A stretch of DNA of 51,162 bases, from positions 1-51,162 of the forward strand of contig JAYEGE010000002.1 in the NCBI GenBank assembly GCA_034658935.1. The letters are read 5' to 3'. Shown one piece after another: positions 4,575-37,717 of this stretch. Every line of letters starts with the position of its first letter. Positions within the stretch are counted from its first letter, which is position 1. Under the pieces are notes generated by a model. That model ran no database searches, had not been told where the DNA came from, and worked only from the letters and a program-made list of their open reading frames with translations. The translations under genes were made by a program, and so were the position numbers. Source of the DNA: Patescibacteria group bacterium (GTDB lineage Bacteria; Patescibacteriota; Minisyncoccia; Phycocordibacterales; JACOZG01).

Positions 4575-4799
4575 ATGATTGGCATTGTCGGAAACTTTCT
4601 TAAAATTATCTTAGTCTGCGCTTATGCGCTGATACTTTTGCCAAACGTAGCACTTGCCTCCTGGCTCTGGCCTAAACGTAAAAATATTGAATGTCGCTAT
4701 AAGCGCTTCGCTTTTTCCACAATTCTCATGCCCGTAGTGGCCATCGCTGCCACCTCTGCTAAATTTGAAGAGCTGTTCAACGGGATGACCAAGTTTTAG
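4575..4799 (+). CDS. Small two-TM hypothetical protein
   Basis: 74 aa, two hydrophobic segments; its stop overlaps the convergent ATP-grasp stop. Confidence 0.45.
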   Translation: MIGIVGNFLKIILVCAYALILLPNVALASWLWPKRKNIECRYKRFAFSTILMPVVAIAATSAKFEELFNGMTKF

Positions 4800-5797
4800 C
4801 CTAACATCTTCTCTAAAATCGAGCGGTAGATCTCCTCAACTCGCTCGCCCTGCTCGGGGCCCAAGCTAGCGTAATTGGCGAGACCAGGCGAAGCATTCAG
4901 TTCTAAAATACTGTAATCCCCTGGCGCCCCATCCAAGCCGCCTGGGCTTATGATATCAATGCCAACGAAGCGCAGATTTATGTCGCGAGCGATCTTGGCA
5001 GCCAACTCTCGCCAAGCTGGATAGAGCTCTCTGGTTAGATCCTTAGCCTCTCCGCCAGTCGAGAGATTAGCATTGGGCAAGAGCTTCACTTGTTCTCCTT
5101 GCACTGGTTTAGATTGCCAAGAGAGTTCTAATTGCTTGAGTTGATTATCTAAACGGAAGTCGTCACTCTCGATGGCCAACTCTCGTTCAGCGGCAACCAG
5201 TTCTGTTTGCCGCCTTTGCCAAAGCTCGCCCAAGGTCGAACGACCATCGCCAATAAGACTGAGCGGGCGACGCTCATAGGCGGCCACCACCTCTCCATCT
5301 AAAACAGTTAGGCGGTAATCGCGGCCCCGGAGTACCTTCTGGACAATAAAGACCCTCTCTCTGTCTTGGAGAGCCTCCACAGCCTGCTTAAACTCTTCCT
5401 CGTCGTGCACCTTGGCCACACCAATCCCCTGCTTCTGACTATTGGGTTTAACAATTAGAGGCCAACCCAAGCTCTGGGCATAAGTTAAAGCCTTGCGCCA
5501 ATCGCGCTCACTACCAATCCGTTGACACCACCAATCGGTGAAGAAAGCCTGCCCGTCAGGTGCTGGGTAGCCGAAGCGCTTTAGGAAACGGGAGGTATAA
5601 TCTTTGTCTTTGGCTAGCTCAGTGGCACCACTAGTATTTAAGTCGAAGGCAGAGCCGCGAAAGAAGCGACGTTGACCATCTGGTAATTCTAAATAACCAA
5701 CGTAGCCATAACGCGGCTCTAGATAAAACTTAACGCCCCGCTCCTTAGCGAGACGACGCAAAATTGAACCGATAGAACTAGGCTTCATAAGGCCCAC
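4796..5797 (-). CDS. Stand-alone ATP-grasp ligase (resembles the cyanophycin synthetase N-terminal / GshAB-type grasp domain)
   Basis: LAKDKDYT, PLIVKPNSQKQGIGV, DYRLTVLDG, NLSTGG, GIDII, LELNASPG. Confidence 0.85.
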   Translation of the reverse strand: MGLMKPSSIGSILRRLAKERGVKFYLEPRYGYVGYLELPDGQRRFFRGSAFDLNTSGATELAKDKDYTSRFLKRFGYPAPDGQAFFTDWWCQRIGSERDWRKALTYAQSLGWPLIVKPNSQKQGIGVAKVHDEEEFKQAVEALQDRERVFIVQKVLRGRDYRLTVLDGEVVAAYERRPLSLIGDGRSTLGELWQRRQTELVAAERELAIESDDFRLDNQLKQLELSWQSKPVQGEQVKLLPNANLSTGGEAKDLTRELYPAWRELAAKIARDINLRFVGIDIISPGGLDGAPGDYSILELNASPGLANYASLGPEQGERVEEIYRSILEKMLG

Positions 5798-5936: not shown

Positions 5937-6356
5937 TTAACGCACGCGAAAGCTGATCATTTTGTTGAGCAGGCCTCTAACTATGCGGCGGAGGAGAGGC
6001 CAACGGATAATCAACTTAGACAGTGGAGGAGAAGCTCGATAGTAGACCCCCACAAACGCTCGGCCCCAGAAACTAGGAAGCAGTCTCTGGTCTCGAAACT
6101 GACGTAGCCATTTAACTTCCGGGGCCAGTTCTGAGCCGTAGGCGGCAGTGGCAATAAAACAACCGCCCCCCCCTCCGCCCCCACCAGAGATCTCACCTGA
6201 CTTTCGAGCGTCATCCCTGGCTTTATGCCAATTTCTTGACGCCTGACTGGTCGACACTCCCGTGTCTTTGGCCGCATCTTTCAATGTATACTTGCCCACT
6301 TCATCAACCCGCCTTTCTTTATCTGCCGACCTCTTTGTTCGGATTAGACGATCCAA
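5937..6356 (-). CDS. Small protein: HTH-like N-terminus, poly-Gly linker, CFI-box-CTERM domain
   Basis: [19 protein letters not shown], then [31 protein letters not shown]...YYRASPP; start codon (TTG) uncertain. Confidence 0.75.
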
Positions 6357-6377
6357 CCCTTCTAAATTGACTATGTA

Positions 6378-6632
6378 TTACGAAGTTAGTTTGTCAATAT
6401 TTTGTATCATTTTTTTGGGTATGAAGTAGAAAGTGGGACTCTTGCTTGGATGCTTCACATTGTCCTTGATATTTCGAGTAACAGGATTACTAATGATTAT
6501 GTAATCTTCTGTTTCTTTAGCCACGTACCCCACAGTTTCCATTTCATGTAGCGCCTCATCCAGATAGCGATGTTTGTATATAACCGCATCCCTCCAGACT
6601 ATATTTACTCTCTGTCCTTCTTTATTGGTCAT
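6378..6632 (-). CDS. Small beta-rich hypothetical protein (W-x-D-A ... IPK family), paralog 2
   Basis: VNIVWRDA...TVGYVAKETEDYIIIS...FIPKKMI. Confidence 0.7.
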   Translation of the reverse strand: MTNKEGQRVNIVWRDAVIYKHRYLDEALHEMETVGYVAKETEDYIIISNPVTRNIKDNVKHPSKSPTFYFIPKKMIQNIDKLTS

Positions 6633-6891
6633 TTAGATACCCAACTTTTTTAAACTCGATAATTGATTTTCGGGGAATAAGAAAACCATTAACCGGAGAG
6701 ACAGTATTGGTTTTCTCATCATAATCGACATTGGTGGCGATATTAACAAATTCGGCACTTTCAGAAATGATAAAGCCGCTGGTTATACTCGGCAAAGGAA
6801 TTTCTTTAGGCAGCTGTTCGTCAAATGTGTACGAGGCATCATGCCACAAAATCGTACAAATTGGATTTCGCTTCTCCTTCTCCTGCAACAT
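6622..6891 (-). CDS. Small beta-rich hypothetical protein, paralog 1
   Basis: ILWHDA...TSGFIISESAEFVNIA...LIPRKSI; overlaps the next gene by 11 nt. Confidence 0.7.
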   Translation of the reverse strand: MLQEKEKRNPICTILWHDASYTFDEQLPKEIPLPSITSGFIISESAEFVNIATNVDYDEKTNTVSPVNGFLIPRKSIIEFKKVGYLNDQ

Positions 6892-6922
6892 ATGATTTAC
6901 ATTCTAGCAAATTGCAGACCAA

Positions 6923-8593
6923 TCACAACTCAGCGATGAAGGTGGAACCCTTGCCGAGACCCTCAGATTCGGCCCAGAGACGGCCATTATGGGCCTCTAC
7001 GATCTGCTTAGCAATAAAGAGGCCTAAGCCTGTGCCGCCGGCGTTAACGTCGCCAGCATGCTCGCCGCGGCCGAATTTCTGGAAGAGGCGCTTGATCGCT
7101 TCTGGCGCTAGACCGACTCCCTTATCCTTAATCGCCAGGCGGAAATGACTCTTAGTCTCATTGGCTCCAGCTGGATTAGTGGTCACTCGGGACAGATTAA
7201 CTTCAATCGGCCCCTCTTCACTATACTTGATGGCGTTATCGACGAGATTATGAATTACCTGGGTGAGCTTGCCCTCATCGCCATTCATCTTATAATCCCC
7301 TTCCCCGATATTTAAATTGATTTCTTGCCTATCGCGCCAAGCCGTCATTTGAAGTTCTTTAACCACGCGCTCGGTCATTTGCCGGAAATCGAAATCGGCC
7401 ATATTGTATTTCATTGAGCCGAGCTCGATGCGGGTAACATTTAAGAAGTCCTCGATTACACTGACTAACTTCTGGCTGGATTCAAAGACCACCGAGACCG
7501 CTCCCTTGACCTTCTCCTCCATATTGCCAAAGGAGCCCTCCAAGAGCATCGAGGAATAGCCCTTGATCGCCGTTAGCGGCGAGCGGAGTTGGTGGGAAGC
7601 AATGGAGACGAACTCCGTCTTCTGCTTATCGATCTCATGTAATTTCTCATTAAGCACAAACAATTTATCATTCGACGCCGTCAAATCCTTCGCCAATTCC
7701 TCAATCCGCTCGCGTTGCTTGACTTCACGCAGCACTGACCTGATCAATAGGATGCCAGCAATCAAGACGAGTAAGAAGACACTGCTCCTGAAAACGACCT
7801 GCCCTAAGGCATCGGAAAAAATGATCTCCAAGAAGGTGACGACCGCCAACACAAACACCAACACCGCCGTCGCCATCACTTTTATATTAAAGAGTTTGTG
7901 TTTAAGGATAGAATAAGCAGTCAGCACAACAAAAGGAATTGTAAACAGGGGCGCGAATGGCACAAAGGTAACTACCCCAAAAATTGTAGGCAGCACTAAG
8001 TTACCTACAATGATAAGGCCGTGTGTGATAATGGTTCCAAGTAAAATCAGCCGCGATTGTTTCCTGAGAACATTTCGAAAACGCCGTGTCTTTTTTATCA
8101 AAATAACAAGACCGGCAACGATGAGAAAAATACTCAAGGCACCGAAAAGAGCTGACGCTGGGCCGAATATTGGCAAAGACACTTGGTTGCCACTGATACT
8201 AGTTAATCCGCCAACCACCCAAGGAGACAAATTTAGAATGGAACATAAAATCACCAAAGGTAAAAGTAGACCTTTGTACCATTTACCAAGAATAGTTTTC
8301 TCCAGTGGGAAAATGTAAAAAAAATGAAAAAGTAAAAAAGCATGCCATATGGCAAGGAAAATGGTCGCCCGAATAATCCAGAGCCGCACCTCTAAATTCT
8401 GAGAAAATAAAGAGTAGTCTTGGTAACTCAAATAATTGACAATACTGTATAGCGCAGAACTTACAGAAAACAAAAGAAAAGCGGTGTTGGTTGCGCTTTT
8501 TCTGTTATTTAGATAAACAGCAAAACCCAAAACCACAATACCTGCAACAGTAATGCCAACCGTTAATAAATCAAGATTCTGTAGAATCCCCAT
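6923..8593 (-). CDS. Sensor histidine kinase with N-terminal multi-TM (about 7TM) input domain
   Basis: Hydrophobic N-terminal half; H-box SIASHQLRSPL, N-box NLVDNAIKYS, DKGVG, GGTGLGL, GKGSTF. Confidence 0.93.
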   Translation of the reverse strand: MGILQNLDLLTVGITVAGIVVLGFAVYLNNRKSATNTAFLLFSVSSALYSIVNYLSYQDYSLFSQNLEVRLWIIRATIFLAIWHAFLLFHFFYIFPLEKTILGKWYKGLLLPLVILCSILNLSPWVVGGLTSISGNQVSLPIFGPASALFGALSIFLIVAGLVILIKKTRRFRNVLRKQSRLILLGTIITHGLIIVGNLVLPTIFGVVTFVPFAPLFTIPFVVLTAYSILKHKLFNIKVMATAVLVFVLAVVTFLEIIFSDALGQVVFRSSVFLLVLIAGILLIRSVLREVKQRERIEELAKDLTASNDKLFVLNEKLHEIDKQKTEFVSIASHQLRSPLTAIKGYSSMLLEGSFGNMEEKVKGAVSVVFESSQKLVSVIEDFLNVTRIELGSMKYNMADFDFRQMTERVVKELQMTAWRDRQEINLNIGEGDYKMNGDEGKLTQVIHNLVDNAIKYSEEGPIEVNLSRVTTNPAGANETKSHFRLAIKDKGVGLAPEAIKRLFQKFGRGEHAGDVNAGGTGLGLFIAKQIVEAHNGRLWAESEGLGKGSTFIAEL

Positions 8594-8786
8594 TAGTCAT
8601 ACTTTAACAAATAATAAGCGGTACTAGTAAGGGCCAGTGATTTTACGGGGGATATTTTCTCAACCTCCGGACCTCTAGTTTGTCTGATTATATAAAACTA
8701 TCTTACCATAATGTTTCAGGATTAAGGTAATCTTAACCGTTCCCTAGGTTCAACAAGTAATTCCATACACTTTGATATAGTCAAAG

Positions 8787-9740
8787 TGTATAGAATTCAA
8801 ACATTTTACGATTGAGGAGCGCGAAAAGATACAAGAATTACTCTGGCAAAAAGTCTCGGTCAGGAAGATTGCCAAAGTACTTGACCGATCGCCATCCTCA
8901 ATCTCACGAGAGACCAACAAGAACATTCCCCTTGAACGGTCATACAAACCACGAGTAGCTCAGGAACGAGTAATTAAGAAACGATCTTGTCGTGGTCACC
9001 AGCTCTGTCTAAAGAGTGGCTTCATTCGTCGGTACGTTGTCGCTAGCCTCAAATCGGGTCTATCGCCAGAACAAATAGCTGGTCGACTCTCTATCGACCA
9101 CCCCGAAGAGTCAATCTCTCATGAAGCTATCTCAATACATCTACTCTGTAGTACACCGAGAGGGGCATGGACACCTGAAGCCGTACTACCACGATCTCCG
9201 TCCATATCTGAAACGTCGATATAAGCGTCGGGTCAAAAAGGGTCTACGTAAATCACGGCGTATATTTAAACCAAGGGGGCCTTCTCTTGAGAACAGACCG
9301 ATAGTGGTTGGAGAGCGAAAACGTGTTGGCGATTGGGAAACTAATACGGTGGAAAGTGTGGGCCACAAACGTGGTCTCAACACCTTAGTAGATCGTAAGA
9401 GTGGTCTGGTGATAATCTCTAGACTTAAAGACAGAACATCGCAAGCGACCACTGAGGCTATTGCCAAGAGATTGAGAAATTAACTCAAACAAAATGCTGT
9501 TATGCCCATCCCTACGCCTCTTGGGAACGTGGCACCAACGAGAATACCAACGGTCTCATTAGGTGGTACCTACCCAAAGGCACAGACTTTGATACTATTA
9601 GTGACGAGCAACTAAAAACCATCGAATACGCTCTAAATACTCGCCTCAGGAAACGTCATCATTGGGGAACTCCCTTAGAAGTATTTAACGAAGAAGTGAG
9701 TCATTACCAGCCAAGTGTTGCATTAAGAGGTTGGATGTAC
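8787..9740 (+). mobile_element. IS30-family transposase remnant (frameshift near 9130, stop and internal deletion near 9483)
   Basis: FKHFTIEERE HTH, SPEQIAGRL, SISHEAI/YQYIY, GDWETNTV, HPYASWERGTNENTNGLIRWYLPKGTDF; right end tgttgcattaagaggttggatgtac resembles an IS30-type terminal IR; left IR not found. Confidence 0.88.
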
Positions 9741-9901
9741 CTTCTAAAACAAGACTTAAACTTTATGGAATTGTTGTCGGTATTAAATAATTTGCGAACC
9801 GTGAGGCCCGACGACAATCACCCTCATAGATATTGCTTTATCTTGCTCTTGTTGTTAGACTACAACAACAGATTTTATTAATTTTTGAGCTGGTAATTCC
9901 C

Positions 9902-10738
9902 ATGTTTAATACTCGCAACGATACAATAGTCAGAAGCCTAATGGATTACGGCCTCAGCGAAAAAGAGACGCTGGTCTACCTGGCTACTTTAAAATTAGAA
10001 GTCGCCACAGCCCAAGAGATCGCCAAGATAGCGGACGTAAACCGAAGTTCAACTTATGTAGTCCTGGAGACCCTCACAAAGAAGGGGTTAGTTGGTATAT
10101 CTGACGACAATAGCGTAAGACGCTATGTGGCCACTTCCCCTGAAGTCCTAGCACAAAACGCCAAAAACCTAGCATCTAAACAGGAAAATATCAAAGAAAA
10201 AATCGTCGATATCTTACCGGAATTGAAAGCCCTTCACAAAGACACGAGAAACAGACCGAGAGTTAAAATTTTTGAAGGCGCAAATGGCATAATGGAAGCC
10301 CTAGAGGATACTTTGGGATGTCGGGAAAGGAAAATTAGAATATATTCAGCAATAGAAAACGTCGCCAAACTATTGCCGCGAAATTATTTTGTCGCTTACG
10401 TTACCAATAGACTTAAACGCAAAATTAGCATGAGCGGCATACATCCGGATAACGAGACCTCCAGGATGTTAACCAAAACAGAAGCAATAAGAATAGACAA
10501 GCCTCTGTTAATACAAGACAAAAGGTACAAATTCCCAGCAGATCTGGCAATCTATGATGATAAAATAGGATATATGTCAGGAGAAGGAGGTGGTCTTGCT
10601 ATTATTATAGAGAGTCCGGCAATGGCTGAAACCATGAAGAATGTCTTTGATTTAGCCTGGGAACGAGCCGAGGACTTGGTCACTCGTCAGTCTGGGGCTA
10701 TGAGGCGTAGCGACAATCGGACAACCAAGTCGAAATAA
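9902..10738 (+). CDS. TrmB-like transcriptional regulator (wHTH plus PLD-like sensor domain)
   Basis: YGLSEKETLVYLATLKL...AQEIAKIADVNRSSTYVVLETLTKKGLV, FEGANGI, IYDDKIGYMS; ATG 9902 preferred over the track start. Confidence 0.88.
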   Translation: MFNTRNDTIVRSLMDYGLSEKETLVYLATLKLEVATAQEIAKIADVNRSSTYVVLETLTKKGLVGISDDNSVRRYVATSPEVLAQNAKNLASKQENIKEKIVDILPELKALHKDTRNRPRVKIFEGANGIMEALEDTLGCRERKIRIYSAIENVAKLLPRNYFVAYVTNRLKRKISMSGIHPDNETSRMLTKTEAIRIDKPLLIQDKRYKFPADLAIYDDKIGYMSGEGGGLAIIIESPAMAETMKNVFDLAWERAEDLVTRQSGAMRRSDNRTTKSK

Positions 10739-11698
10739 GGCCTGGGGTTTTAAGTTTGTTTGAAGAATTTTCTGTAAGTCTTGATAGTGGCTCCCTATCT
10801 GGATCGGGGAGGCCCACATAGCCGTTGAAAATCCGGCCTTAGCTGCCAGCAGGGCAATCCTTTCGTAAGTCTGGCCTACCCGTATCCAGTTCCTCGGCTG
10901 GTCATTTTTTGAAGCAATAACCACTAAAGCTGGTGTTTGTTCAGCCAATAAGCGCCGATCTTTTCTGGCGCTCGCCTTATTCACATTAACGTATTTCATT
11001 AATCGTGGGACCAGGATAGACACCAGAGTGGGCATACCAAAGCCAAAACCAGGCATCCCAATGCAAGAACCCGTTTTATTTGGCACAACATACCTAGAAA
11101 GCTCCTGCCTAAATCCCTTATCGCCCGTTGCCTCTATGGAGGCGGCGACGGCAACGTTGGCAATATCTCGCCTGACTCCCCCATCCTGCACAATAAAAAT
11201 CTTTATCCCATCGGTGTCTAATCGCGTCAGTGCTTCAATTAATCCAAGTGGTAGTCCTCCAAGTTTATAAGGATTACGGTTTGAGACTCTCCGGGAAATA
11301 AAATTAGCCAAATGATCGCGAGGGCCTAGTTTACCATGCTTTGCTTCCAGTTTTTTGACGGCCAACCTAACGACTGACTGCCCCCAGTCAGTTCTATCGG
11401 GGTAAATCACCACAATCTCATGGTTGTAATAGTCTGCCGCAATCAAAATATTTTCTACGGCGCAACCCAAACTCATATAAGCTTGACGATTATTACTATC
11501 ACTGTGGGGCAAAAGCCGAGAGAGTTCCAGGGCAACACTAATGACTCCATTATCAATTTTGAATTTCCAGGGTTGACTATTATGACTCGACGGCGCCAAG
11601 ACCGCAAAATTTAAGAGAAAACACAGTTTGTCCTTGGGCGTTGTCGGCTTATGAAAATCGTCCAAAACCAGCTCCCAAGCTTTATAATTATTACCCAT
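10652..11698 (-). CDS. Acg/Rv2032-like nitroreductase-fold FMN protein
   Basis: AVLAPSSHNSQPWKF, SLGCAVENI, RRVSNRNPY, WIRVGQTYERIAL, ALFRLG; ATG 11698 preferred (track start 11725). Confidence 0.87.
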   Translation of the reverse strand: MGNNYKAWELVLDDFHKPTTPKDKLCFLLNFAVLAPSSHNSQPWKFKIDNGVISVALELSRLLPHSDSNNRQAYMSLGCAVENILIAADYYNHEIVVIYPDRTDWGQSVVRLAVKKLEAKHGKLGPRDHLANFISRRVSNRNPYKLGGLPLGLIEALTRLDTDGIKIFIVQDGGVRRDIANVAVAASIEATGDKGFRQELSRYVVPNKTGSCIGMPGFGFGMPTLVSILVPRLMKYVNVNKASARKDRRLLAEQTPALVVIASKNDQPRNWIRVGQTYERIALLAAKAGFSTAMWASPIQIGSHYQDLQKILQTNLKPQALFRLGCPIVATPHSPRLTSDQVLGSFPG

Positions 11699-11818
11699 AA
11701 AGAGAATATTACCAAAAGCCATCATGAAAACAATGTCCCAGGAGTTGGAGATCCGTGGTAACAGTTCATAACCGCCTTAGCGCCACCCAACATTGGAGAG
11801 GGAAATGGTTATTGAAAA

Positions 11819-13000
11819 CTACAACCCAAAGATCTTTTTGAAAGACTCTACCACCTGCCCCCTTTTGGCAGCAGATTCTGGGGTATCCCAATCAGGAGTA
11901 AGTTCCTTATCCAGAAGGATGAGGGCACGATTAGACTCCAATTCTTGACCATTGAGAATCTTTCGGACACAATAGGCCACTGCGGCCCCATTGATCATTG
12001 CCGCACCCCCTAATTGGGGCCAGGAGACGATCGTCTTGCCCATTTCGAGAAGTGATTGTTGCATCCGCTCAGTAACATTTTCTGGTCCGACATGCTTAGT
12101 AATCATCTTGCCGATACCAAACTTGTCTAATTTGCTAAGCATCTCGTAGTCCACCTCCCCCATTCGCCCATGGAAAAATGGTGTGTCTGGATCTAAATCG
12201 TAGCGTTCGATATCGACAACCGAATTATCTCCATTGTCAGCGGCCATCACCACCGCAATTTTATGTTTTTTCGCGTGCTCTCTAATTAAATATTTAACAG
12301 CGAGATTATCGAGTTCGTCTATAACAATATCCAGCCCCTCAAAAAACTTCCCAATATTGTCAGGCTGAAGACCGTCAGAGAATAACTCAACCTCGGCGTA
12401 GGGATTAATCTCGTAGATTCTCCTCGCGGCCATCTCCACCTTAAGCGCACCGAGATTATCAACCCCCATCAATATGCGATTGGTGTTGGAGAGTGCCAAC
12501 CTGTCCATGTCAGCCAACTTAATATGTTTAGCGCCCCCCTGGAGCGCTAAGGCAAAGGCCACACTAGAGCCGATACTCATTCCCCCTATTCCCACCGTAG
12601 AGTTGTAAAACTTATCTTGCTCTTCAGCGGTGATTAGATTCTTATTGCGGGCCGTCCTGACAAGCCAAAAATCATCCTCCAACAAGATATGTACGAGAGT
12701 CGAGCTCCACGGATAGTACACCCAGTGGCCTTGCCGCCAGAGCGGCATAGATTCGCCCAGCCCCCGAAGATAGTCCTGGAAATCGGTTTCGAAGTTGGGT
12801 GCATACACCTTTGACGGATTGTTTACACCAAATAGCTCACGTTGTTGCTCTTCGTAGTCGTCCACGACTACTTGGACCCCATTTTGATCAATAAGCCCTT
12901 GGAGATCCTCTTCGCCAGACCTCTTCGACAAATCAAAAATCGTGGGCTCTGAGCTTAAATCTTGATTCGCGTTTTCTTTTAAAAATTTCTCTGTTTTCAT
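11819..13000 (-). CDS. ThiF/E1-like adenylyltransferase of the Rv1355c-like type
   Basis: WVYYPW, RTARNKNLITAEEQ, VGIGGMSIGS, LADMDRLALSNTNRI, KVEMAARRIYEINPY, IDELD, SWPQLG. Confidence 0.88.
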   Translation of the reverse strand: MKTEKFLKENANQDLSSEPTIFDLSKRSGEEDLQGLIDQNGVQVVVDDYEEQQRELFGVNNPSKVYAPNFETDFQDYLRGLGESMPLWRQGHWVYYPWSSTLVHILLEDDFWLVRTARNKNLITAEEQDKFYNSTVGIGGMSIGSSVAFALALQGGAKHIKLADMDRLALSNTNRILMGVDNLGALKVEMAARRIYEINPYAEVELFSDGLQPDNIGKFFEGLDIVIDELDNLAVKYLIREHAKKHKIAVVMAADNGDNSVVDIERYDLDPDTPFFHGRMGEVDYEMLSKLDKFGIGKMITKHVGPENVTERMQQSLLEMGKTIVSWPQLGGAAMINGAAVAYCVRKILNGQELESNRALILLDKELTPDWDTPESAAKRGQVVESFKKIFGL

Positions 13001-13002
13001 TG

Positions 13003-14520
13003 TTAATTAGAAATATATTTAGGTTTCAAACCGGGTTTAAAATACTTTTCATGTTGGTAGGACCAAAGTTTAACCCGCGGAGATAAATTTTTGTCAGGAT
13101 GATGCTTAACGGTATCAGAATACTCACTATTGGCTTTCAATAGAGTTTGGCAGACTGCCTTCTTTATCTCAGCCCTAATTTTCGATGTTCCCTTGGTGTC
13201 TTTTCGCATTTCAATATTAACAACTAGACATTGTTCATGATTGGGCAAAGGTTTTTTGATGATAGTAAACTTACCCGTGATTCTACTTAAAAGATTCTTC
13301 CTCGCCAAGGCCATGTGTACGTGACCCGGGTAAATGTTTGCGGCATAGAAAATGACTGTCTGGTCACTCCGGCCGTAGAAAGCAATGAGCGGTAACCGCC
13401 ACGGATTAGTTGCCCCACCGACCCTCAAGTCCTTTTTCCAGTCTAAGCCCCCTCCCTCCAATGTTGATGCAAACTCATCGTAATCAAAGATACGTCCAGC
13501 ATCTTGTAAATCAAATCTAATCAAGGGAACCCCACCATTAGCGGTAAAGATTAGATTACCTCTCTCGCTCTCCTCTATATACCTAAGGGCGGGATTATAT
13601 TGAAACAATTGTGGTGATTGAGGTTGCCCGAAGACCGCTCGACTTTTGCGGCTATTTTTTTCGAAAAATTTTCGCGCCACAATAGTTAGGGGCGTCTCAC
13701 ATCCCATTAACAAGAGCTCGGATGATCCATAAGTGTTTATGGCCGCATTGAGATCAGACTCAGATCCCACCCGCTTCTTAATATAGGAGCGCCACAGCTC
13801 ACTAAAGCCCTCACTACAATAGAGCATTTTGATATCTAGAGATTTCCATCTTACCCCCTTGTTTGCCCCAGTCTCCACTACATCTTTTATGAAGAACGGG
13901 TGTCCGATTAGGAGGGTCTGCTCATAGTCCTTGGAGAGCTCTTTTACTGTCCGCAATATTTCATCTTTGTTGTTACCAGCACTTACCACCGTCGACCCGT
14001 ATTTCCTCATTGAAAACAACCAAGTCGGCAATAAGGTCGCCACTCCCGAGACATAGAAGCCCATTGGGAAACCGATAATGATGAGAGTTTTACGTTTGTG
14101 GATTGCAAAAAGATGTTTATAGATCAACTCATGGGTAATCAATGCTTCCAGATCCTGCTCCGACTGCCTAGGCCAAAAAATTGGTTCGCCGCTCGTCCCA
14201 GAACTCAACGCAATAAGATTATTGCTGGCCAAATTACCATCCCAACATCTGTCTTTCAGAGGATACTTTTTAACGTAATCACTTTTATCGGTAATCGGCA
14301 CTCTATCTTTGAAGTCACTAATAGTTCTAATCTCACGAGGAATCAGTTGATGCTTGTTGAGAAAATCTTTATAAGCCGGAACCCGATCAGCGGCAAGATG
14401 AAAAAGTTTCAGAGCGCGAGCCTCTCCACGACGCTGCCAGAAACTACTATTTTTTGTTTCTAATAGCTTTTCGAATGAGGAGACCCCCCCTATTTTAAGC
14501 TCTGTTAATTGTCGGAGCAT
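13003..14520 (-). CDS. Phenylacetate-CoA ligase (PaaK)-like adenylate-forming enzyme
   Basis: RVPAY, SSGTSGEP, YGSSE, IRFDLQD, GRSDQ; overlaps the lyase stop. Confidence 0.85.
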   Translation of the reverse strand: MLRQLTELKIGGVSSFEKLLETKNSSFWQRRGEARALKLFHLAADRVPAYKDFLNKHQLIPREIRTISDFKDRVPITDKSDYVKKYPLKDRCWDGNLASNNLIALSSGTSGEPIFWPRQSEQDLEALITHELIYKHLFAIHKRKTLIIIGFPMGFYVSGVATLLPTWLFSMRKYGSTVVSAGNNKDEILRTVKELSKDYEQTLLIGHPFFIKDVVETGANKGVRWKSLDIKMLYCSEGFSELWRSYIKKRVGSESDLNAAINTYGSSELLLMGCETPLTIVARKFFEKNSRKSRAVFGQPQSPQLFQYNPALRYIEESERGNLIFTANGGVPLIRFDLQDAGRIFDYDEFASTLEGGGLDWKKDLRVGGATNPWRLPLIAFYGRSDQTVIFYAANIYPGHVHMALARKNLLSRITGKFTIIKKPLPNHEQCLVVNIEMRKDTKGTSKIRAEIKKAVCQTLLKANSEYSDTVKHHPDKNLSPRVKLWSYQHEKYFKPGLKPKYISN

Positions 14521-16058
14521 ACTTTCAGGCGTGACAAAACCTTGGCCAGATCATTAGCCAGGGCCCTATCATCGGTTATTGCGGGGAACATTTCTCTAAT
14601 ACTGCGGTAAAATTCAGCTATTGGGCCAGACAGCTCACCACCGGTTTTGAGTAAATCAGTACATTGAGCCAGAGTGACAACCTCAATAGCCTGAATTATG
14701 AAAGAATTGTCGACTACCTTAGAGCACAGAAGCGCCGCATCAGTCCCCATGCTCACCACATCCTGATTGTCAGCATTAGTAGGAATTGAGTGAACATATT
14801 GTGGGTATGCCAAGGTCTGACTTTGGGCGGCAGTTGAAGTCGCCACAAACTGGAGCCCCTGCAGGCCTAATGTTAGCCCTGGTTTCTGTAAATTTAAAAA
14901 GGGGGGGAAGGTGGCGTTGACCTTATCGTTTAGGAAGAAATTGATTCGCCTCTCGGCCAAAAGGCCGAGTTTTACAATAGTCATCTTGAGTTGATCAACG
15001 GCGTAAGCGATGTAGTCACCATGGAAATTACCACCATGGAGAAAACTCTCTTTCTCCCAATCAACAATCGGATTGTCAGTAACGGAATTAATCTCGATTG
15101 CCACCATCTCTTTGGCTTTCTCCACTGCATCATAGACAGGGCCGAGTATCTGGGCCAAGCAGCGAAACGAGTAGACCTCTTGGACTGTCTCAGAAATTTT
15201 ATAGACCTCTTCCGCCTGCGTACCATTTTTCTTTAGGTCCTTCCTGTCTTTCAAAAGCTTGGAGTCCGCCAACAACTTCCTTAAGCGGCCAGATACGCAT
15301 AATTGACCGGCATGCGGCCTCAGAGCATGGAGGCCCTCTGCGATACTGTCATCAAAGGCGTTCACTAACTCTAGAGCCCAAGCGCCGGCCTTAATCTCGT
15401 TATCGAGAAGCCCAGCGGCCCTAGAGACAAGCACCGCGGCTATTCCACCCATCACCGAAGTTCCGTTAATCAATGACAGCCCTTCTTTGGCTTTGAGTTC
15501 ATAGGCCTCGAGTTTTAGTTCTCCAGCGACCTTAGACATCGGTTGCCTTTTGCCTTGATAAAAAACCTCTCCTTCTCCTATTAAAGCCAGAGCAACGTGG
15601 GCAAGCTGAACCAAGTCACCACTAGTCCCCACTGCCCCATGCTCGAGAACAACTGGAATAATTCTTTTGTTAATGTAGGCCGCAAGTCTCTCAACTAATT
15701 CAACTGACACACCGGAGTATCCCTTGACCAGAGTGTTAAGCCGCACAAGCATCGCCGCTAAGACATAGTCTTGGTCAATTGGCTCCCCCATGCCAGTGGC
15801 ATGGCTTCTAATTAGATTGACTTGAAGATTGGCCGCCTCATCATCGTTAACAAGATATGAGGCCATTGGACCAAAACCCGTGTTAACACCGTAAACAATG
15901 TGGTCTTCACGATGTTTCTCAAGGAAAGCACGGGACTGCCGCACTTTATCTAAGGCCTCAGGAGAAATCTCCACCGAGCCCTGTGGGCCAGCAATGAACT
16001 GTTGAATATCGCCAATGGTCAGATCTCCCCCAGTCAGAGTCAGTTTATTTCCTTTCAT
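14505..16058 (-). CDS. MIO-dependent aromatic amino acid ammonia-lyase (FjTAL-like; substrate unproven)
   Basis: YGVNTGFGPMA, LQVNLIRSHATG, HGAVGTSGDLVQLAH, INGTSVM, YSFRC, DNP, HGGNFHGDY, DNQDVVSMGT. Confidence 0.92.
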   Translation of the reverse strand: MKGNKLTLTGGDLTIGDIQQFIAGPQGSVEISPEALDKVRQSRAFLEKHREDHIVYGVNTGFGPMASYLVNDDEAANLQVNLIRSHATGMGEPIDQDYVLAAMLVRLNTLVKGYSGVSVELVERLAAYINKRIIPVVLEHGAVGTSGDLVQLAHVALALIGEGEVFYQGKRQPMSKVAGELKLEAYELKAKEGLSLINGTSVMGGIAAVLVSRAAGLLDNEIKAGAWALELVNAFDDSIAEGLHALRPHAGQLCVSGRLRKLLADSKLLKDRKDLKKNGTQAEEVYKISETVQEVYSFRCLAQILGPVYDAVEKAKEMVAIEINSVTDNPIVDWEKESFLHGGNFHGDYIAYAVDQLKMTIVKLGLLAERRINFFLNDKVNATFPPFLNLQKPGLTLGLQGLQFVATSTAAQSQTLAYPQYVHSIPTNADNQDVVSMGTDAALLCSKVVDNSFIIQAIEVVTLAQCTDLLKTGGELSGPIAEFYRSIREMFPAITDDRALANDLAKVLSRLKVCSDN

Positions 16059-16141
16059 GCACCCATTCTAGCAAAAACGGTCTAACTATTCTAGAGATTG
16101 CCTTGAGGTCAATTCGCCATGACCCAAGAAAACGTGTGCTT

Positions 16142-16783
16142 TTACTGCTTAAATCTTACCGCTACCACGCCAGTATTCTCTAAGCGCGGAGGAGTCATTG
16201 CGACGGCAAAAATCTCCGGAGTTACCTTACGATTTGGGACAGGAGGCAGACCTGGCTCGTGAAAAGTGACCTCAGTTTTAGAAACTTCAGTCACTACCAC
16301 CAAATGACTCCAATAGCCCTCTTCTTTTCTTAGGGCATGAGGGTTTACTGCAACCATCAAGATATATCCCTTTTTGTTGTATTCGATCACGTCTTCTATG
16401 GTACAAACTTTATAGATCAGTTTTACGTCCTTATTTTTGAGTAATACTTTTGCCAACCTTTGCTCATGCGCCAAATCAGTCAACTGCTTTTGCCCCTCAA
16501 GCGTCTCGGGACTCCAGATTTCAGCACAATATTTCTCACCCTCTCCCGCAAAACGAGAGTAATTAAAATTTTCCAGATTGACAACCTCTAGGCCCTGTTT
16601 CTCTAAAAGATCTAAGACCAAGCTCATGCTGGTTCCGTAACCCTTAAGGTGGCCAGTGATCATATTAAGTTCAGCATAGGTGAAAATCTTTTTTGGGAAA
16701 AAATATTTCAAGGCCATGCACAGACATGCTTGCACGCAGTGTCTATCATCTATAGTGTTGGGAAAAAATGGTATTTTATTCAT
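16142..16783 (-). CDS. Peptidase C39-like (papain-fold) protein
   Basis: HCVQAC (Cys), SHLVVV (His), FHEPG (Glu where Asp is usual). Confidence 0.78.
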   Translation of the reverse strand: MNKIPFFPNTIDDRHCVQACLCMALKYFFPKKIFTYAELNMITGHLKGYGTSMSLVLDLLEKQGLEVVNLENFNYSRFAGEGEKYCAEIWSPETLEGQKQLTDLAHEQRLAKVLLKNKDVKLIYKVCTIEDVIEYNKKGYILMVAVNPHALRKEEGYWSHLVVVTEVSKTEVTFHEPGLPPVPNRKVTPEIFAVAMTPPRLENTGVVAVRFKQ

Positions 16784-16803
16784 GTTTTGTATTATAAATA
16801 TAA

Positions 16804-16830
16804 AGACGGGAGGCCGCGATCGGCCTCCCT
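16804..16830 (-). terminator. Hairpin with weak U-tract between the micro-peptide and the C39 gene
   Basis: gggaggccg-atcg-cggcctccc followed by gtctttat. Confidence 0.55.
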
Positions 16831-16840
16831 ATGACAGAAG

Positions 16841-16915
16841 TTAGCTACCTGGGCCACTACCCCTGCCACTACCGGAACTTCCACCGCCCCCGCCGAAGCA
16901 ATGCACAAAACTCAT
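16841..16915 (-). CDS. 24-aa Gly/Ser-rich micro-peptide MSFVHCFGGGGGSSGSGRGSGPGS; not in the ORF track
   Basis: Strong SD AGAAAGGAG shortly upstream, ATG 16915, TAA 16841-16843, varied Gly/Ser codons, downstream hairpin. Confidence 0.65.
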   Translation of the reverse strand: MSFVHCFGGGGGSSGSGRGSGPGS

Positions 16916-17225
16916 AGCGCTCTCCTTTCTAGCCTCTTTCTTATCTCCGCATAAGAACATATTTATGGTTAAGCCAACCTCAACCATCTAGACTTAAGAT
17001 TAGAGCATGACGTATTGTTGTCGATAGATGACAATAGAGAAAAACGGATGACTAAAATGTCAAATCATATCGTATCGACAAAACACCAGATGGCAGACAC
17101 CAAAAGACTTTTAGCTTTACTTGTCAATAACTTGTAACAACTTTTTTCTTGTAGCACACGAACTACCTATCCCCGTCACTGAGAGCCAACATCTCATAAG
17201 CAAAGCTTCGATGTGGCGGATAAAA

Positions 17226-34791: not shown

Positions 34792-35128
34792 AAAAAAAGA
34801 GCCCCGATGCAGCAACATCGGGGCGCTTAGTAGTGCCCCCACCCTTGCACTCGCAGGAGCACCACGGCAAGTGGCTATGAAAACTCAAACGCAGGGGCAG
34901 GTCAAGGCCATCACTCCCGACCGCCCCTGCCAAGGAGGCGCTCCCTAAGAAATAGGGATGCGGTAGGCGAAAAAAGAGGCGGAGCAGGAACCAATCCTGC
35001 TTCACTTCGACCGGATGTCCCACAAAAGGACCGTACGCCAAAAAAAAGAACTAGGTCAAAATGGGGGCAGGTGCGACCCCGCATCGCACCTACCCCGGCA
35101 GGAACTCCCCGTCGCCAGTCTTCATCCA
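34792..35128 (-). ncRNA. Candidate structured ncRNA or alaS leader (unassigned family)
   Basis: Promoter TTGACA-N17-TAGCAT at 35163-35135, several GC-rich hairpins, terminator at 34801-34824 plus U run, no convincing protein. Confidence 0.5.
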
Positions 35129-35247
35129 CATTCAATGCTACTCCCCGATTCCCAAGCTGTCAAGAGTCAGCTCAAGCCCGGTGGATAACTCGGCGTGTAT
35201 ACCTTGACAACATAACCCCACTAGGTTGGTGAGGAATTGTTTTTTGG

Positions 35248-37638
35248 TCATTGAAATAATTGTTTTAATGAACCCCATACCTCTGTCTTTTTAAAGATAG
35301 CATTTAGATAATCTTCATCTATCTCCCCGCTTATGTTAATCGGTAAGAATATCTTTAATTGATCAACTTTATTTTCATAGCATTTTCTGCCGTAAGAAAA
35401 ACGCCATTTTAGACTATTTATCTGTGTAACAAAGAATAGTAAGGTCGAAAATTTATATTCTCTTAGTGGCTTACATAAGAGTACGTTGTCTTTTGCTGTA
35501 AATTGATAATAATGATAAAAACTTGTTAGGGGTGCCCCGTCTGAAGCTATTGTTATTGCATTTTGTAGTATGTGTTTCTTATTTTCTATATTATAAAATC
35601 CTTCAAAACCACAATCAACACTGACACAAGATACTAAAGGAATTTTTCCCTCATCTAACTCACTACTTTTGTGATAGTTACCTGTCTTAATTGGTGCCTC
35701 AAACAAGTCTGTTAATAAGAATTCTTTCCATTGGACATTCTCATCATAAGCTGAATTTGAAAAAAACTTTTTTTCTTTTTCTATAACGTTCTTTTTAAAT
35801 TCGTTGAGTCTGTTGTATTTTATCATTGAAGAGATGAAATTTCTCATTTCAATATCAATTCTCTTATACAAAACATCATCACTTGGTTTTTTTTCATCTA
35901 GGTAGACTTGCGGTAACAATTCAAGATTTTTATCTTGGAAATCAATCTTTTCAGTTTTTATAAATTCCTCAATATTTCTGATTTTCATTGAGGGATCTTT
36001 TATAAAATCCTTTACTATATCAGCGATTTCATTTAACTGGTTTGGCTCTTTTTTGTTAGATATTCTTTTTCCTTTAACCTTTAAAAAGCCGTCTTTATCA
36101 ACTTTTACCCATAAGACATTTTGGTTATGGTTGTGAGAAACTCCTTTTTTTATATAAAAACCTAATGTATGAGTGCCAACAGGATAAAATAAGTCCATTG
36201 GAAATGTAACAACCGACAAGAGTGTGTTTTTCTTCAACATCTCAGTTCTCCATTGAATAAATTTTGCTTGTTTTACTAACGCCCCAACAGGAAGGACACA
36301 AAATAGGATACCCCCGTCCTGCATTTGGTTTAACGCTTGTTCAATAAATTCAAATTCTTTTTTTTCCTGACTAAAAGGAGGATTTATCATCACCTTTGTT
36401 ATTGGTCGTATTCTATCTTCTTCATTTTTATCAAGATATTCCGCTTTGATATCTCCACTTTCTGTTCTTGATACAGCAAGCCATTTATTAAAACAATTCC
36501 CTTCGATCATGTTTGTTTTTCCATCACCTCTAAAAATCATATTCACAATGGCGAGAGAAATAATCGGATCTTGTTCTTCTATCCCATAGATGCCATTCTG
36601 TTTAAAGTTTTCAAATTCTTTTTTATCTTTTGTCTTTCTTTTAACTTCATCATAAGCAGATACAAGAAATCCGCCTGTTCCACAGGCCAGATCTAAAACT
36701 AAATCATGTGCGTCAATGTCTAATGTATATGATGCAAACCTTGTTATATGTCGTGGGGTTAACACAATACCGATTTCTTTTGCACCGTTTCCGTATTTCA
36801 AAAATACTTCATAAAATTCTCCTAAAACATCTCTACCAGAGTTCATTGCTGATCGGATATTCAAATCAAGCAACTTTTGATAAGTCCTTTTTATGGCGTC
36901 TTTTACTTTTACATGGTTATCCTCACTTGAAGGCTCATCTATTCTTATAAATTTTGCAAAATCTTGTTTTTTATGATTTCGTAAAATCAGTTCAACTTTT
37001 TTATTTACGTTATTTATTAAAACAAGGGCGTTTTCATTTAGATTCAAATTTTCACCCGTGGTCATTGATAAAAGTATTGCTGACATGAATCTAGCACGAT
37101 AATCTTTGTTTATTGAGTTTTCATGTAAAATCTTGTTGACTTCAATTGCTGTTTTTAAAAATTCATCTTCAGAAATCTCAATGTCTTCGATAAGGGCAGA
37201 CTTATTTTTTAAAATAGTATCTATTTGTTGTAAAGATAAAATGCTTGTTATTTCAACATCATTTTCTTTAATTAGATCCCAATTACTACCATTAAAATAG
37301 TAACTTTTAGAGATATACCCCTCATCTTCATTCCCCGCAACACCAGTAACAAAAAGGACTTTAATTTTTTTACTCTGGTTTATTTTTTTTGCGTATTGAT
37401 TTTTTGCCTCGTCGATAGCTATTTCTATTTTTGATTTTTCATTTTTACCCTCAATTACATAGAAGATTTCTTCTTTTACTTTTATTACGTTTTCAGGTCT
37501 ATCTAAGACTAGATATTTTTTTACTTCTTCTATAGTTAAACATTCCTGTTGAGTATAAACATTTTTTTTATCCCAACCCTTTTTTAGGATCTCATCTAAG
37601 ATATATTTATAACATGCAACTTCTGATTTCTTTATCAT
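35248..37638 (-). CDS. Single-chain restriction-modification enzyme (nuclease + N6-adenine MTase + TRD; type IIG/IIB-like)
   Basis: N-terminal PENV...IEGK nuclease-like motif, LDLACGTGGFL, NPPF, C-terminal HsdS-like TRD; visibly AT-rich. Confidence 0.88.
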   Translation of the reverse strand: MIKKSEVACYKYILDEILKKGWDKKNVYTQQECLTIEEVKKYLVLDRPENVIKVKEEIFYVIEGKNEKSKIEIAIDEAKNQYAKKINQSKKIKVLFVTGVAGNEDEGYISKSYYFNGSNWDLIKENDVEITSILSLQQIDTILKNKSALIEDIEISEDEFLKTAIEVNKILHENSINKDYRARFMSAILLSMTTGENLNLNENALVLINNVNKKVELILRNHKKQDFAKFIRIDEPSSEDNHVKVKDAIKRTYQKLLDLNIRSAMNSGRDVLGEFYEVFLKYGNGAKEIGIVLTPRHITRFASYTLDIDAHDLVLDLACGTGGFLVSAYDEVKRKTKDKKEFENFKQNGIYGIEEQDPIISLAIVNMIFRGDGKTNMIEGNCFNKWLAVSRTESGDIKAEYLDKNEEDRIRPITKVMINPPFSQEKKEFEFIEQALNQMQDGGILFCVLPVGALVKQAKFIQWRTEMLKKNTLLSVVTFPMDLFYPVGTHTLGFYIKKGVSHNHNQNVLWVKVDKDGFLKVKGKRISNKKEPNQLNEIADIVKDFIKDPSMKIRNIEEFIKTEKIDFQDKNLELLPQVYLDEKKPSDDVLYKRIDIEMRNFISSMIKYNRLNEFKKNVIEKEKKFFSNSAYDENVQWKEFLLTDLFEAPIKTGNYHKSSELDEGKIPLVSCVSVDCGFEGFYNIENKKHILQNAITIASDGAPLTSFYHYYQFTAKDNVLLCKPLREYKFSTLLFFVTQINSLKWRFSYGRKCYENKVDQLKIFLPINISGEIDEDYLNAIFKKTEVWGSLKQLFQ

Positions 37639-37717
37639 TTACTAATCATAACAGGTACATAAAAAAACAAAAGTCGTTGAAAATCAAAAAGTGTTGATAA
37701 CTTATTCTATCTATTGA

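Follow-up and report, generated by a model that had tools for sequence, protein, structure and literature searches.

A 51,162-nt stretch of a Patescibacteria group bacterium genome (GenBank assembly GCA_034658935.1, contig JAYEGE010000002.1, positions 1 to 51,162; hereafter, the window) carries a minus-strand run of genes annotated as encoding an aromatic amino acid ammonia-lyase, an adenylate-forming ligase, a ThiF-like protein, and a flavin oxidoreductase, with a gene for a HisKA_7TM sensor histidine kinase farther along the same strand. With moderate confidence, these genes are interpreted as an oxazolone-type small-molecule operon, kept by vertical descent in Patescibacteria, that is tied to a seven-transmembrane (7TM) two-component sensor. 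The system is best filed as a form of oxazolone biosynthesis in which an aryl acid is the donor, a ligase takes the place of the acyltransferase, the cyclase and oxidase are encoded by separate genes, and a 7TM kinase is linked; it is widespread in bacteria of the candidate phyla radiation (CPR). The genes of the unit in the window are as follows.

14505-16058, minus strand: aromatic amino acid ammonia-lyase of the 4-methylideneimidazole-5-one (MIO) type, 517 aa (Pfam Lyase_aromatic, E = 1e-154)
13003-14520, minus strand: distant PaaK-family adenylate-forming ligase, 505 aa (profile and structure matches)
11819-13000, minus strand: ThiF-like protein, 393 aa (NF005901, Rv1355c family, 342 bits)
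10652-11725, minus strand: Acg-family FMN oxidoreductase (FDO), 357 aa (NF047509, 202 bits; cutoff, 199)
6923-8593, minus strand: HisKA_7TM sensor histidine kinase (Pfam HisKA_7TM, HisKA, and HATPase_c)

The lyase and ligase genes overlap by 16 nt, the ligase and ThiF genes lie 2 nt apart, and 93 nt separate the ThiF gene from the oxidase gene, so that the overlapping or abutting arrangement described in the first-pass annotation of this DNA was borne out. All features in its gene list were located on the strand and in the order that it gave, based on the open reading frame (ORF) listing and profile searches.

Related loci were collected by scanning one genome per species with a profile of the ligase, which produced 48 loci (given L numbers here) whose genes were assigned by tblastn and ORF clustering. 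Co-occurrence was counted across evaluable loci only, i.e., those with enough flanking DNA. The 48 loci span Parcubacteria/Paceibacterota, Doudna-, Kaiser-, Lloyd-, Roizman-, and Gottesmanbacteria, with a recurrent order of lyase, ligase, ThiF, oxidase, a methyltransferase in about six loci, and 7TM kinase. The ligase gene was accompanied by the lyase gene in 44 of 46 evaluable loci, by the ThiF gene in 38 of 41, by the FDO gene in 36 of 41, and by the kinase gene in 32 of 37, and all five genes were present together in 26 of 36. Gene order that is the same in dozens of genomes places the arrangement far beyond chance. The co-conservation check proposed in the first-pass annotation thus came out in favor of these five genes, including the 7TM kinase that it had linked to the biosynthetic genes, and not of the micro-peptide and C39-like genes that it had also listed (0 of 48 loci). 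Genes for a receiver-only response regulator were found in 18 loci, in most of them directly before or after the cluster.

The genes flanking the cluster varied by lineage, and the cluster was located downstream of dnaK-dnaJ in several lineages, that of the window included; varied flanks combined with this shared placement make the unit look old and vertically kept rather than a mobile island. The kinase gene was directly 3′ of the biosynthetic genes (usually of the oxidase or methyltransferase gene) in most loci. Because the kinase usually adjoins the enzymes in relatives, the IS30 remnant and the TrmB-family gene that stand between the oxidase and kinase genes in the window interrupt the ancestral operon. 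Two reduced variants (L021 and L043) had an oxidase-ligase-kinase order with no lyase gene nearby, and the ThiF gene of L043 was 8.7 kb upstream.

Gene fusions and a second cluster type tie the enzymes to one another. ThiF and FDO were fused in L013, L022, and L030, and lyase and ligase were fused in L045. Among distant relatives of the ligase were ligase-ThiF, ThiF-ligase, dehydrogenase-ligase, and dehydrogenase-ligase-ThiF fusion proteins, in which the dehydrogenase was ScyB-like, a member of the Glu/Leu/Phe/Val family of amino acid dehydrogenases. These proteins belong to a sister type of cluster, composed of an oxidase, a dehydrogenase, ligase, and ThiF that are separate or fused, an alpha/beta-hydrolase, and a HisKA_7TM kinase; the genes that come next encode a receiver protein, a TrmB-like protein, or bactofilin/DAGK. 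Sister-type loci (L050 to L056) included triple fusions, such as a dehydrogenase-ligase-ThiF protein of 1,242 aa. In this type the ScyB-like dehydrogenase takes the place of the lyase, and the ligase, ThiF, FDO, and 7TM kinase are retained; the kinase was present in four of four variant architectures. Two different deaminating enzymes occupying the first position, with the remainder kept, suggest that the role of the first enzyme is to provide a deaminated aryl acid, which would be an acrylate where the lyase acts and a 2-oxo acid where the dehydrogenase does, and the retention of ligase, ThiF, oxidase, and kinase through this exchange suggests that the ligase uses that acid and hands its product to ThiF. 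Ligase-ThiF fusions in both orders likewise point to the product of the ligase as the substrate of ThiF.

The assignment to oxazolone chemistry draws on the ThiF-like protein. Its match to NF005901 covered model positions 4 to 349 of 722, i.e., the N-terminal half including the family-specific region, and the GxGxxG, LADxD, NRI, and DExD motifs were conserved across 34 orthologues. Scored with the same model, the fused orthologue of L022 passed the equivalog cutoff of 476 bits with 500 bits, that of L013 fell just below it with 474 bits, and the oxidase of the window matched the C-terminal half with 53 bits. Proteins of this kind were called uncharacterized in the first-pass annotation, a statement that is outdated: OxzB, TyzB with TyzC, and TrzS are demonstrated oxazolone synthetases. 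OxzB from Pseudoalteromonas rubra is a ThiF-nitroreductase oxazolone synthetase whose substrate, N-acyl tyrosine, is produced by OxzA (10.1101/2020.06.11.147165; reviewed in PMC12596934), TyzB and TyzC of Mycobacterium tuberculosis carry out the same chemistry as separate proteins (PMC10404671), and TrzS, which is Rv1355c, catalyzes ATP-dependent cyclization of N-acyl tryptophan followed by O2-dependent desaturation (PMC12856293). By homology, the ThiF-like protein of the window is predicted to act as a cyclase that depends on ATP and to correspond to the N-terminal half of OxzB/TrzS.

The oxidase is predicted from its sequence to be a monomeric double-nitroreductase-fold FDO acting as a C-alpha/C-beta desaturase, and its match to Acg in the PDB (2YMV) had an E value of 9e-10. 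Two subtypes were seen among the oxidases of 39 loci, of which 31 resembled the C-terminal half of Rv1355c (FDO-A-like) and 7, that of the window included, were Acg-like (FDO-B-like); these subtype assignments are provisional. The Acg-like subtype also occurred in dehydrogenase-type clusters. Acg-like oxidase genes beside ThiF genes were observed in the window and in L001, L006, L009, L035, L042, L045, and L050 to L053.

The ligase is only distantly related to characterized enzymes. It scored 57 bits with the NCBIfam PaaK model, versus an equivalog cutoff of 646, and 34 bits with the FlxY model; a Pfam GH3 N-terminal domain match was weak, and the match to PaaK in the PDB had an E value of 1.7e-6. 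Its AlphaFold2 model (mean predicted local distance difference test score [pLDDT], 88.7) was most similar in Foldseek to PaaK1 (2y27; E = 3e-23; TM-scores, 0.65 and 0.76), followed by NatL2, AjiA1, and ClxA (E values of 1e-18 to 1e-15 at 15 to 16% identity), with GH3 amido synthetases more distant. An SSGTSGEP loop and a C-terminal Lys499 were conserved in the ligase family. Homologues with 45 to 57% identity numbered in the hundreds, nearly all from Patescibacteria metagenome-assembled genomes, and the family comprised 522 clusters (50% identity) at E ≤ 1e-30. NatL2 and ClxA condense an aryl acid with a second substrate without CoA (PMC7204872 and PMC12519233). The ligase represents a new subfamily of PaaK-family adenylate-forming enzymes and is predicted to activate an aryl acid and N-acylate an amino acid.

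The lyase most likely is a tyrosine ammonia-lyase (TAL) that converts tyrosine to p-coumarate, judging from its scores and active-site residues. Its best NCBIfam model was the flexirubin TAL FlxA (620 bits, compared to 444 bits for HutH), which was matched with the best E value by 31 of 31 lyase orthologues, and its closest solved relative was the tyrosine aminomutase SgTAM (E = 6e-92). The MIO and catalytic residues Tyr56, T/A-S-G at positions 145 to 147 (TSG in the window), Asn198, Tyr296, Arg299, and Gln432 were invariant, and His86 was nearly so, across 42 orthologues. His86 aligned with SgTAM His93, Pro64 stood at the position of SgTAM Glu71, and Gln432 occupied the position of Glu414 of histidine ammonia-lyase; these substrate-pocket residues place the lyase with the tyrosine type rather than the histidine type. 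Catabolism of histidine or phenylalanine, considered as a role for the lyase, was rejected since the Glu of histidine lyases was missing, the best score was to a TAL, and no catabolic partner genes were found. The pairing of the FlxA TAL with the PaaK-like FlxY, taken from NCBIfam model names, is a precedent for a TAL followed by aryl acid activation.

Taken in order, the pathway would begin with deamination of l-tyrosine to p-coumarate by the MIO lyase, a step proposed from homology, active-site residues, and the best-scoring model. The PaaK-family ligase would then form coumaroyl-AMP and acylate an aromatic amino acid, either Tyr or Trp, at its amino group, standing in for the acyl-CoA-dependent N-acyltransferases OxzA, TyzA, and TrzA. 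This second step is suggested by the gene fusions, by the lack of an acyltransferase gene (searches of the 51-kb window revealed no gene of the OxzA/TyzA/TrzA kind, and none was a conserved neighbor in the 48 loci), and by the precedents for CoA-independent condensation in the PaaK family. The ThiF-like enzyme would adenylate the alpha-carboxylate and close an oxazol-5-one ring, as OxzB, TyzB, and TrzS have been shown to do, and the flavin oxidase would desaturate the C-alpha/C-beta bond to give an exocyclic double bond, as shown for OxzB, TyzC, and TrzS. The predicted end product is a conjugated 2-(4-hydroxystyryl)-4-arylidene-oxazol-5-one, in which Tyr is an economical guess for the amino acid moiety; TrzS, the nearest characterized relative, uses Trp. 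In some lineages, O-methylation (where a methyltransferase gene is present) or further processing (where an alpha/beta-hydrolase gene is present) may follow. Since the chemistry of the ThiF family is known, an oxazolone is a likelier end product than a plain amide or an acylated peptide; the cinnamoyl- or coumaroyl-type product put forward in the first-pass annotation therefore stays plausible as an amide derivative and loses ground in its plain amide and acylated-peptide forms. Its description of the route as undescribed fits the acyl donor and ligase part and the kinase linkage, and not the ThiF/FDO chemistry, which is already known. No published description of the cluster in CPR bacteria was found in a literature search that was incomplete, so the novelty of the cluster is unproven.

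The kinase has intact H, N, and G boxes, and its sensor region consists of the 7TM domain only, with no PAS, GAF, or photoactive yellow protein (PYP) domain found by Pfam. It may sense the lipophilic product or control its synthesis, often together with a receiver-only regulator, a proposal drawn from adjacency only. An all-membrane sensor domain would suit a lipophilic ligand, and the layout recalls CqsA/CqsS-type pairs. The strongest argument for a functional tie between kinase and product is that the kinase gene persists beside the enzyme genes even where genes have been rearranged or fused or the first enzyme has been replaced. In a distance matrix (mirror-tree) comparison of 20 loci, lyase, ligase, and ThiF covaried (Spearman rho, 0.33 to 0.42). 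In some genomes, two or three HisKA_7TM paralogues were encoded around the cluster (L035 and L052).

Several observations weigh against this interpretation of the pathway and its sensor. The score of the lyase (620 bits) falls short of the 700-bit FlxA equivalog cutoff, and the split ThiF-like protein of the window (342 bits) is under the 476-bit cutoff of its family model. The acceptor of the ligase may be CoA or another molecule rather than an amino acid. TrzS, the closest characterized homologue, is specific for Trp, so that the amino acid moiety may not be Tyr. Known FDOs use O2, and many CPR bacteria are anaerobic. The window encodes no response regulator or receiver protein, and the 7TM domain of the kinase gave no signal of coevolution with lyase, ligase, or ThiF across the same 20 loci (rho, −0.18 to 0.06). 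Finally, FDO-A proteins are linked to oxazolones, and FDO-B (Acg) proteins, the subgroup that the oxidase of the window resembles, are of unknown function and have not been tied to oxazolones so far (PMC10404671).

In another explanation, ThiF and ligase carry out chemistry other than oxazolone formation. The ligase might, for example, supply an unlinked acceptor with an aryl-acyl-CoA or aryl-acyl-AMP, with ThiF activating another carboxylate for amidation or thiocarboxylation. The distance of the ligase from any characterized enzyme and the Acg-like character of the FDO in the window would fit it. It is nonetheless judged improbable, given that the ThiF match takes in the N-terminal region of Rv1355c that is specific to the family, that fused ThiF-FDO orthologues reach the equivalog cutoff (L022, 500 bits) or come close to it (L013, 474 bits against 476), and that ligase and ThiF are fused in both orders. 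A peptide product is less credible still. Upstream of the lyase gene lie an ORF for a 24-aa Gly/Ser-rich micro-peptide (MSFVHCFGGGGGSSGSGRGSGPGS; 16841-16915, minus strand), preceded by an AAAGGAG ribosome-binding site and followed by a terminator-like hairpin (16829-16808) that was the strongest of the region, and the gene for a C39-like protein. In a scheme resembling ribosomally synthesized, post-translationally modified peptide (RiPP) pathways, the C39-like peptidase would process the micro-peptide, ThiF and the nitroreductase-fold enzyme would modify it as in thiazole/oxazole-modified microcin (TOMM) or microcin C systems, and the ligase would attach an aryl acid. The position of the small ORF, with its own translation and termination signals, directly upstream and beside a gene for a Cys-His papain-fold protein is what such a scheme would lead one to expect, and pairs of E1-like proteins and FMN dehydrogenases do occur in TOMM clusters. 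Yet none of the 48 related loci and none of the variant loci had the micro-peptide, the C39-like gene, or any Gly/Ser-rich small ORF near the cluster, the window contains no YcaO gene, a promoter-like site and the terminator of the peptide separate the two units, and the ThiF orthologues belong to a small-molecule family. The peptide scheme is therefore regarded as very improbable, and the peptide-tailoring part of the first-pass annotation is not upheld.

For the oxazolone operon itself, synthesis of the product is rated higher than its perception by the kinase. It is possible, and proposed here tentatively, that the locus represents an ancient signaling system of Patescibacteria in which the four-enzyme operon makes a Tyr-derived aryl-oxazolone (a keto-acyl analogue in the dehydrogenase type), HisKA_7TM perceives it, and receiver-only regulators relay the signal. 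Biosynthesis might also proceed as proposed with a product that is not a self-signal and serves as an antibiotic, host-directed effector, pigment, or membrane-active lipid, the kinase reading an external cue and regulating only production or resistance. The lack of a coevolution signal between the 7TM domain and the enzymes and the extra copies of the same kinase type in several genomes (among them L035 and L052) agree with that explanation, as does the finding that N-acyl tyrosine derivatives can be antimicrobial, with the role of oxazolones unresolved (PMC12856293). On the other side, kinase adjacency survives rearrangement, fusion, and the exchange of the first enzyme, a pattern typical of synthase/receptor pairs, and the regulator that accompanies it is in most cases of the receiver-only kind, which lacks a DNA-binding output for driving an operon; the nonsignal explanation is considered rather unlikely. 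The probability assigned to a third role, in which the product would be a chromophore or prosthetic group that makes the kinase a light or redox sensor, is very low. Bacteriophytochrome operons have a bphO-bphP-receiver layout, which the order of cofactor synthesis, kinase, and receiver genes resembles; the predicted product is highly conjugated and electrophilic, and TAL plus coumarate ligase is the established route to the chromophore of PYP. Against these resemblances, the kinase lacks a PAS, GAF, or PYP domain, many carriers are groundwater metagenome-assembled genomes according to their record titles, and the ThiF and FDO steps would be needless for a coumaroyl thioester.

Other features at or near the cluster in the window are as follows.

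16841-16987, minus strand: small ORF from the ORF listing, for which the 24-codon reading at 16841-16915 is the plausible product
16142-16783, minus strand: C39-like Cys-His protein, 213 aa (weak profile and fold support)
16085-16112, minus strand: promoter-like site between the C39-like gene and the lyase gene (TTGACC-16-AATAGT; 9 of 12 consensus positions matched, a consensus match only)
9833-10738, plus strand: TrmB-family regulator (Pfam TrmB, E = 1.7e-15)
8790-9760 (approximate), plus strand: decayed IS30-family transposase gene (NF033563 IS30, 70 bits for the 9121-9483 fragment)
6378-6632 and 6622-6891, minus strand: a pair of paralogous ORFs (84 and 89 aa) that overlap each other, directly 3′ of the kinase gene (no family match)
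5937-6356, minus strand: protein with a CFI-box-CTERM domain (NF041770, 91 bits), encoded at the end of the kinase string
4796-5797, minus strand: ATP-grasp ligase resembling the N-terminal part of cyanophycin synthetase (E = 1.6e-42)

The C39-like protein matched Pfam DUF3335 below the cutoff (E = 2.5e-4), and one distant homologue (30% identity), with which it shares Cys16 and His160, was found in a database of 5.8 billion proteins. Its AlphaFold2 model (pLDDT, 74) was most similar in Foldseek to papain-like/C39 peptidases (E values of 1e-3 to 1e-2), with weak resemblance to PeiR, the C39 domain of PCAT1, phytochelatin synthase, and CtaG; a sequence search of the PDB returned only noise. The C39-like gene and the micro-peptide ORF, both specific to the genome of the window, may together form a small module of their own that was inserted between thrS and the operon.

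The TrmB and oxidase genes are convergent and the 7TM kinase gene lies beyond the insertion sequence, both as first annotated; the 3′ ends of the two convergent genes overlap by 87 nt. The IS30 transposase gene is a pseudogene in at least three reading-frame pieces. TrmB homologues flanked the cluster in L010, L013, and L014 only (3 of 48 loci), in addition to the window, and a different TrmB-like gene followed the kinase gene in L052 and L053. As an occasional neighbor, the TrmB gene was rejected as the dedicated regulator that the first-pass annotation had made part of the system, and its membership in the cluster is uncertain. The ATP-grasp gene, which had homologues close to the cluster in L008 and L010 only (2 of 48 loci), was also rejected as a member, as were the CFI-box gene and the small paralogous ORF pair that follows the kinase gene (0 of 48). 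The kinase string, consisting of the kinase gene, the two paralogous ORFs, and the CFI-box-CTERM gene, is closed by a terminator-like hairpin at 5911-5896. The CFI-box-CTERM protein contains a run of eight glycines; the micro-peptide also combines Cys-Phe with a glycine run (HCFGGGGG), in the opposite order.

The remainder of the window consists of housekeeping genes, including those for ribosomal proteins, RpoA, GrpE-DnaK-DnaJ, and six aminoacyl-tRNA synthetases. Profile searches of the larger ORFs in the 51-kb window found no YcaO, polyketide synthase (PKS), LuxI, GNAT/NAS-type, or acyltransferase genes, in agreement with the first-pass statement on YcaO, PKS, and LuxI, and no Rfam families or tRNAs were found in the window. 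The predicted leucyl-tRNA synthetase (44634-47615, minus strand; 993 aa) has a NUDIX hydrolase domain (residues 389 to 505, E = 3e-13) inserted after the editing domain. A low-GC island at about 35000-38000 (GC fraction, 0.33 to 0.34, compared to 0.47 to 0.50 elsewhere in the window) contains a gene for an N6 DNA methylase-domain protein of 796 aa (35248-37638, minus strand) and was probably acquired horizontally.

Compared to characterized systems, the CPR cluster is closest to OxzAB of P. rubra, TyzACB, and TrzAS (Rv1356c-Rv1355c) of M. tuberculosis, with which it shares a ThiF-like cyclase and a monomeric nitroreductase-fold flavin oxidase; its predicted substrates are of the same class, N-acyl aromatic amino acids. 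ThiF and FDO are adjacent in the window and, as in OxzB and TrzS, fused in some CPR orthologues. The N-acyltransferase of OxzA, TyzA, and TrzA is lacking in the CPR cluster and a PaaK-family ligase is in its place, the predicted donor is an aryl acid from an MIO lyase or dehydrogenase instead of a fatty acyl-CoA, the oxidase of the window is Acg/FDO-B-like, and the unit includes a 7TM histidine kinase. The hosts also differ, being Proteobacteria or Actinomycetota for the known systems and CPR bacteria for the cluster. FlxA/FlxY, which provide the flexirubin starter, and TAL/pCL of PYP biosynthesis have in common with the cluster a TAL followed by a p-coumarate-activating adenylate-forming enzyme; in contrast to these, the cluster has no PKS or PYP apoprotein and continues with ThiF and FDO, and its 505-aa ligase belongs to a subfamily separate from FlxY (about 425 aa) and scores 34 bits with the FlxY model. 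NatL2, AjiA1, and ClxA from benzoxazole pathways likewise have the PaaK fold and use ATP to activate an aryl acid, which they join directly to a second aromatic block without CoA. Their relation to the cluster ligase is structural only, and the cluster differs in its predicted acceptor, an alpha-amino group, and in ring closure by ThiF rather than by an amidohydrolase. CqsA/CqsS, LqsA/LqsS, and AgrBD/AgrC are similar in that genes for synthesis of a lipophilic small molecule adjoin a gene for a kinase with an all-membrane, multihelix sensor; there is no sequence relationship, and the partner regulator of the cluster is receiver-only and absent in the window.

To our knowledge, CPR bacteria, with their tiny genomes, have almost no recognized specialized metabolism. 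A five-gene small-molecule and sensor module kept in a housekeeping neighborhood across several candidate phyla suggests that it is important for the CPR lifestyle. The cluster predicts a new PaaK-family amide ligase that is probably CoA independent. It also predicts that Acg-type (FDO-B-like) oxidases can act in oxazolone-type pathways, which may bear on the function of Acg, a dormancy protein of mycobacteria. What oxazolones do physiologically has been called a major unresolved question (PMC12856293), and a pathway wired to a sensor kinase makes a signaling role for them directly testable. If the signaling proposal is true, the kinase would be the first cognate receptor for an oxazolone natural product, and the product would be the first ligand of a HisKA_7TM sensor domain. 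The system would then also be the first dedicated chemical communication system in CPR bacteria, and it could govern episymbiont behavior, such as attachment.

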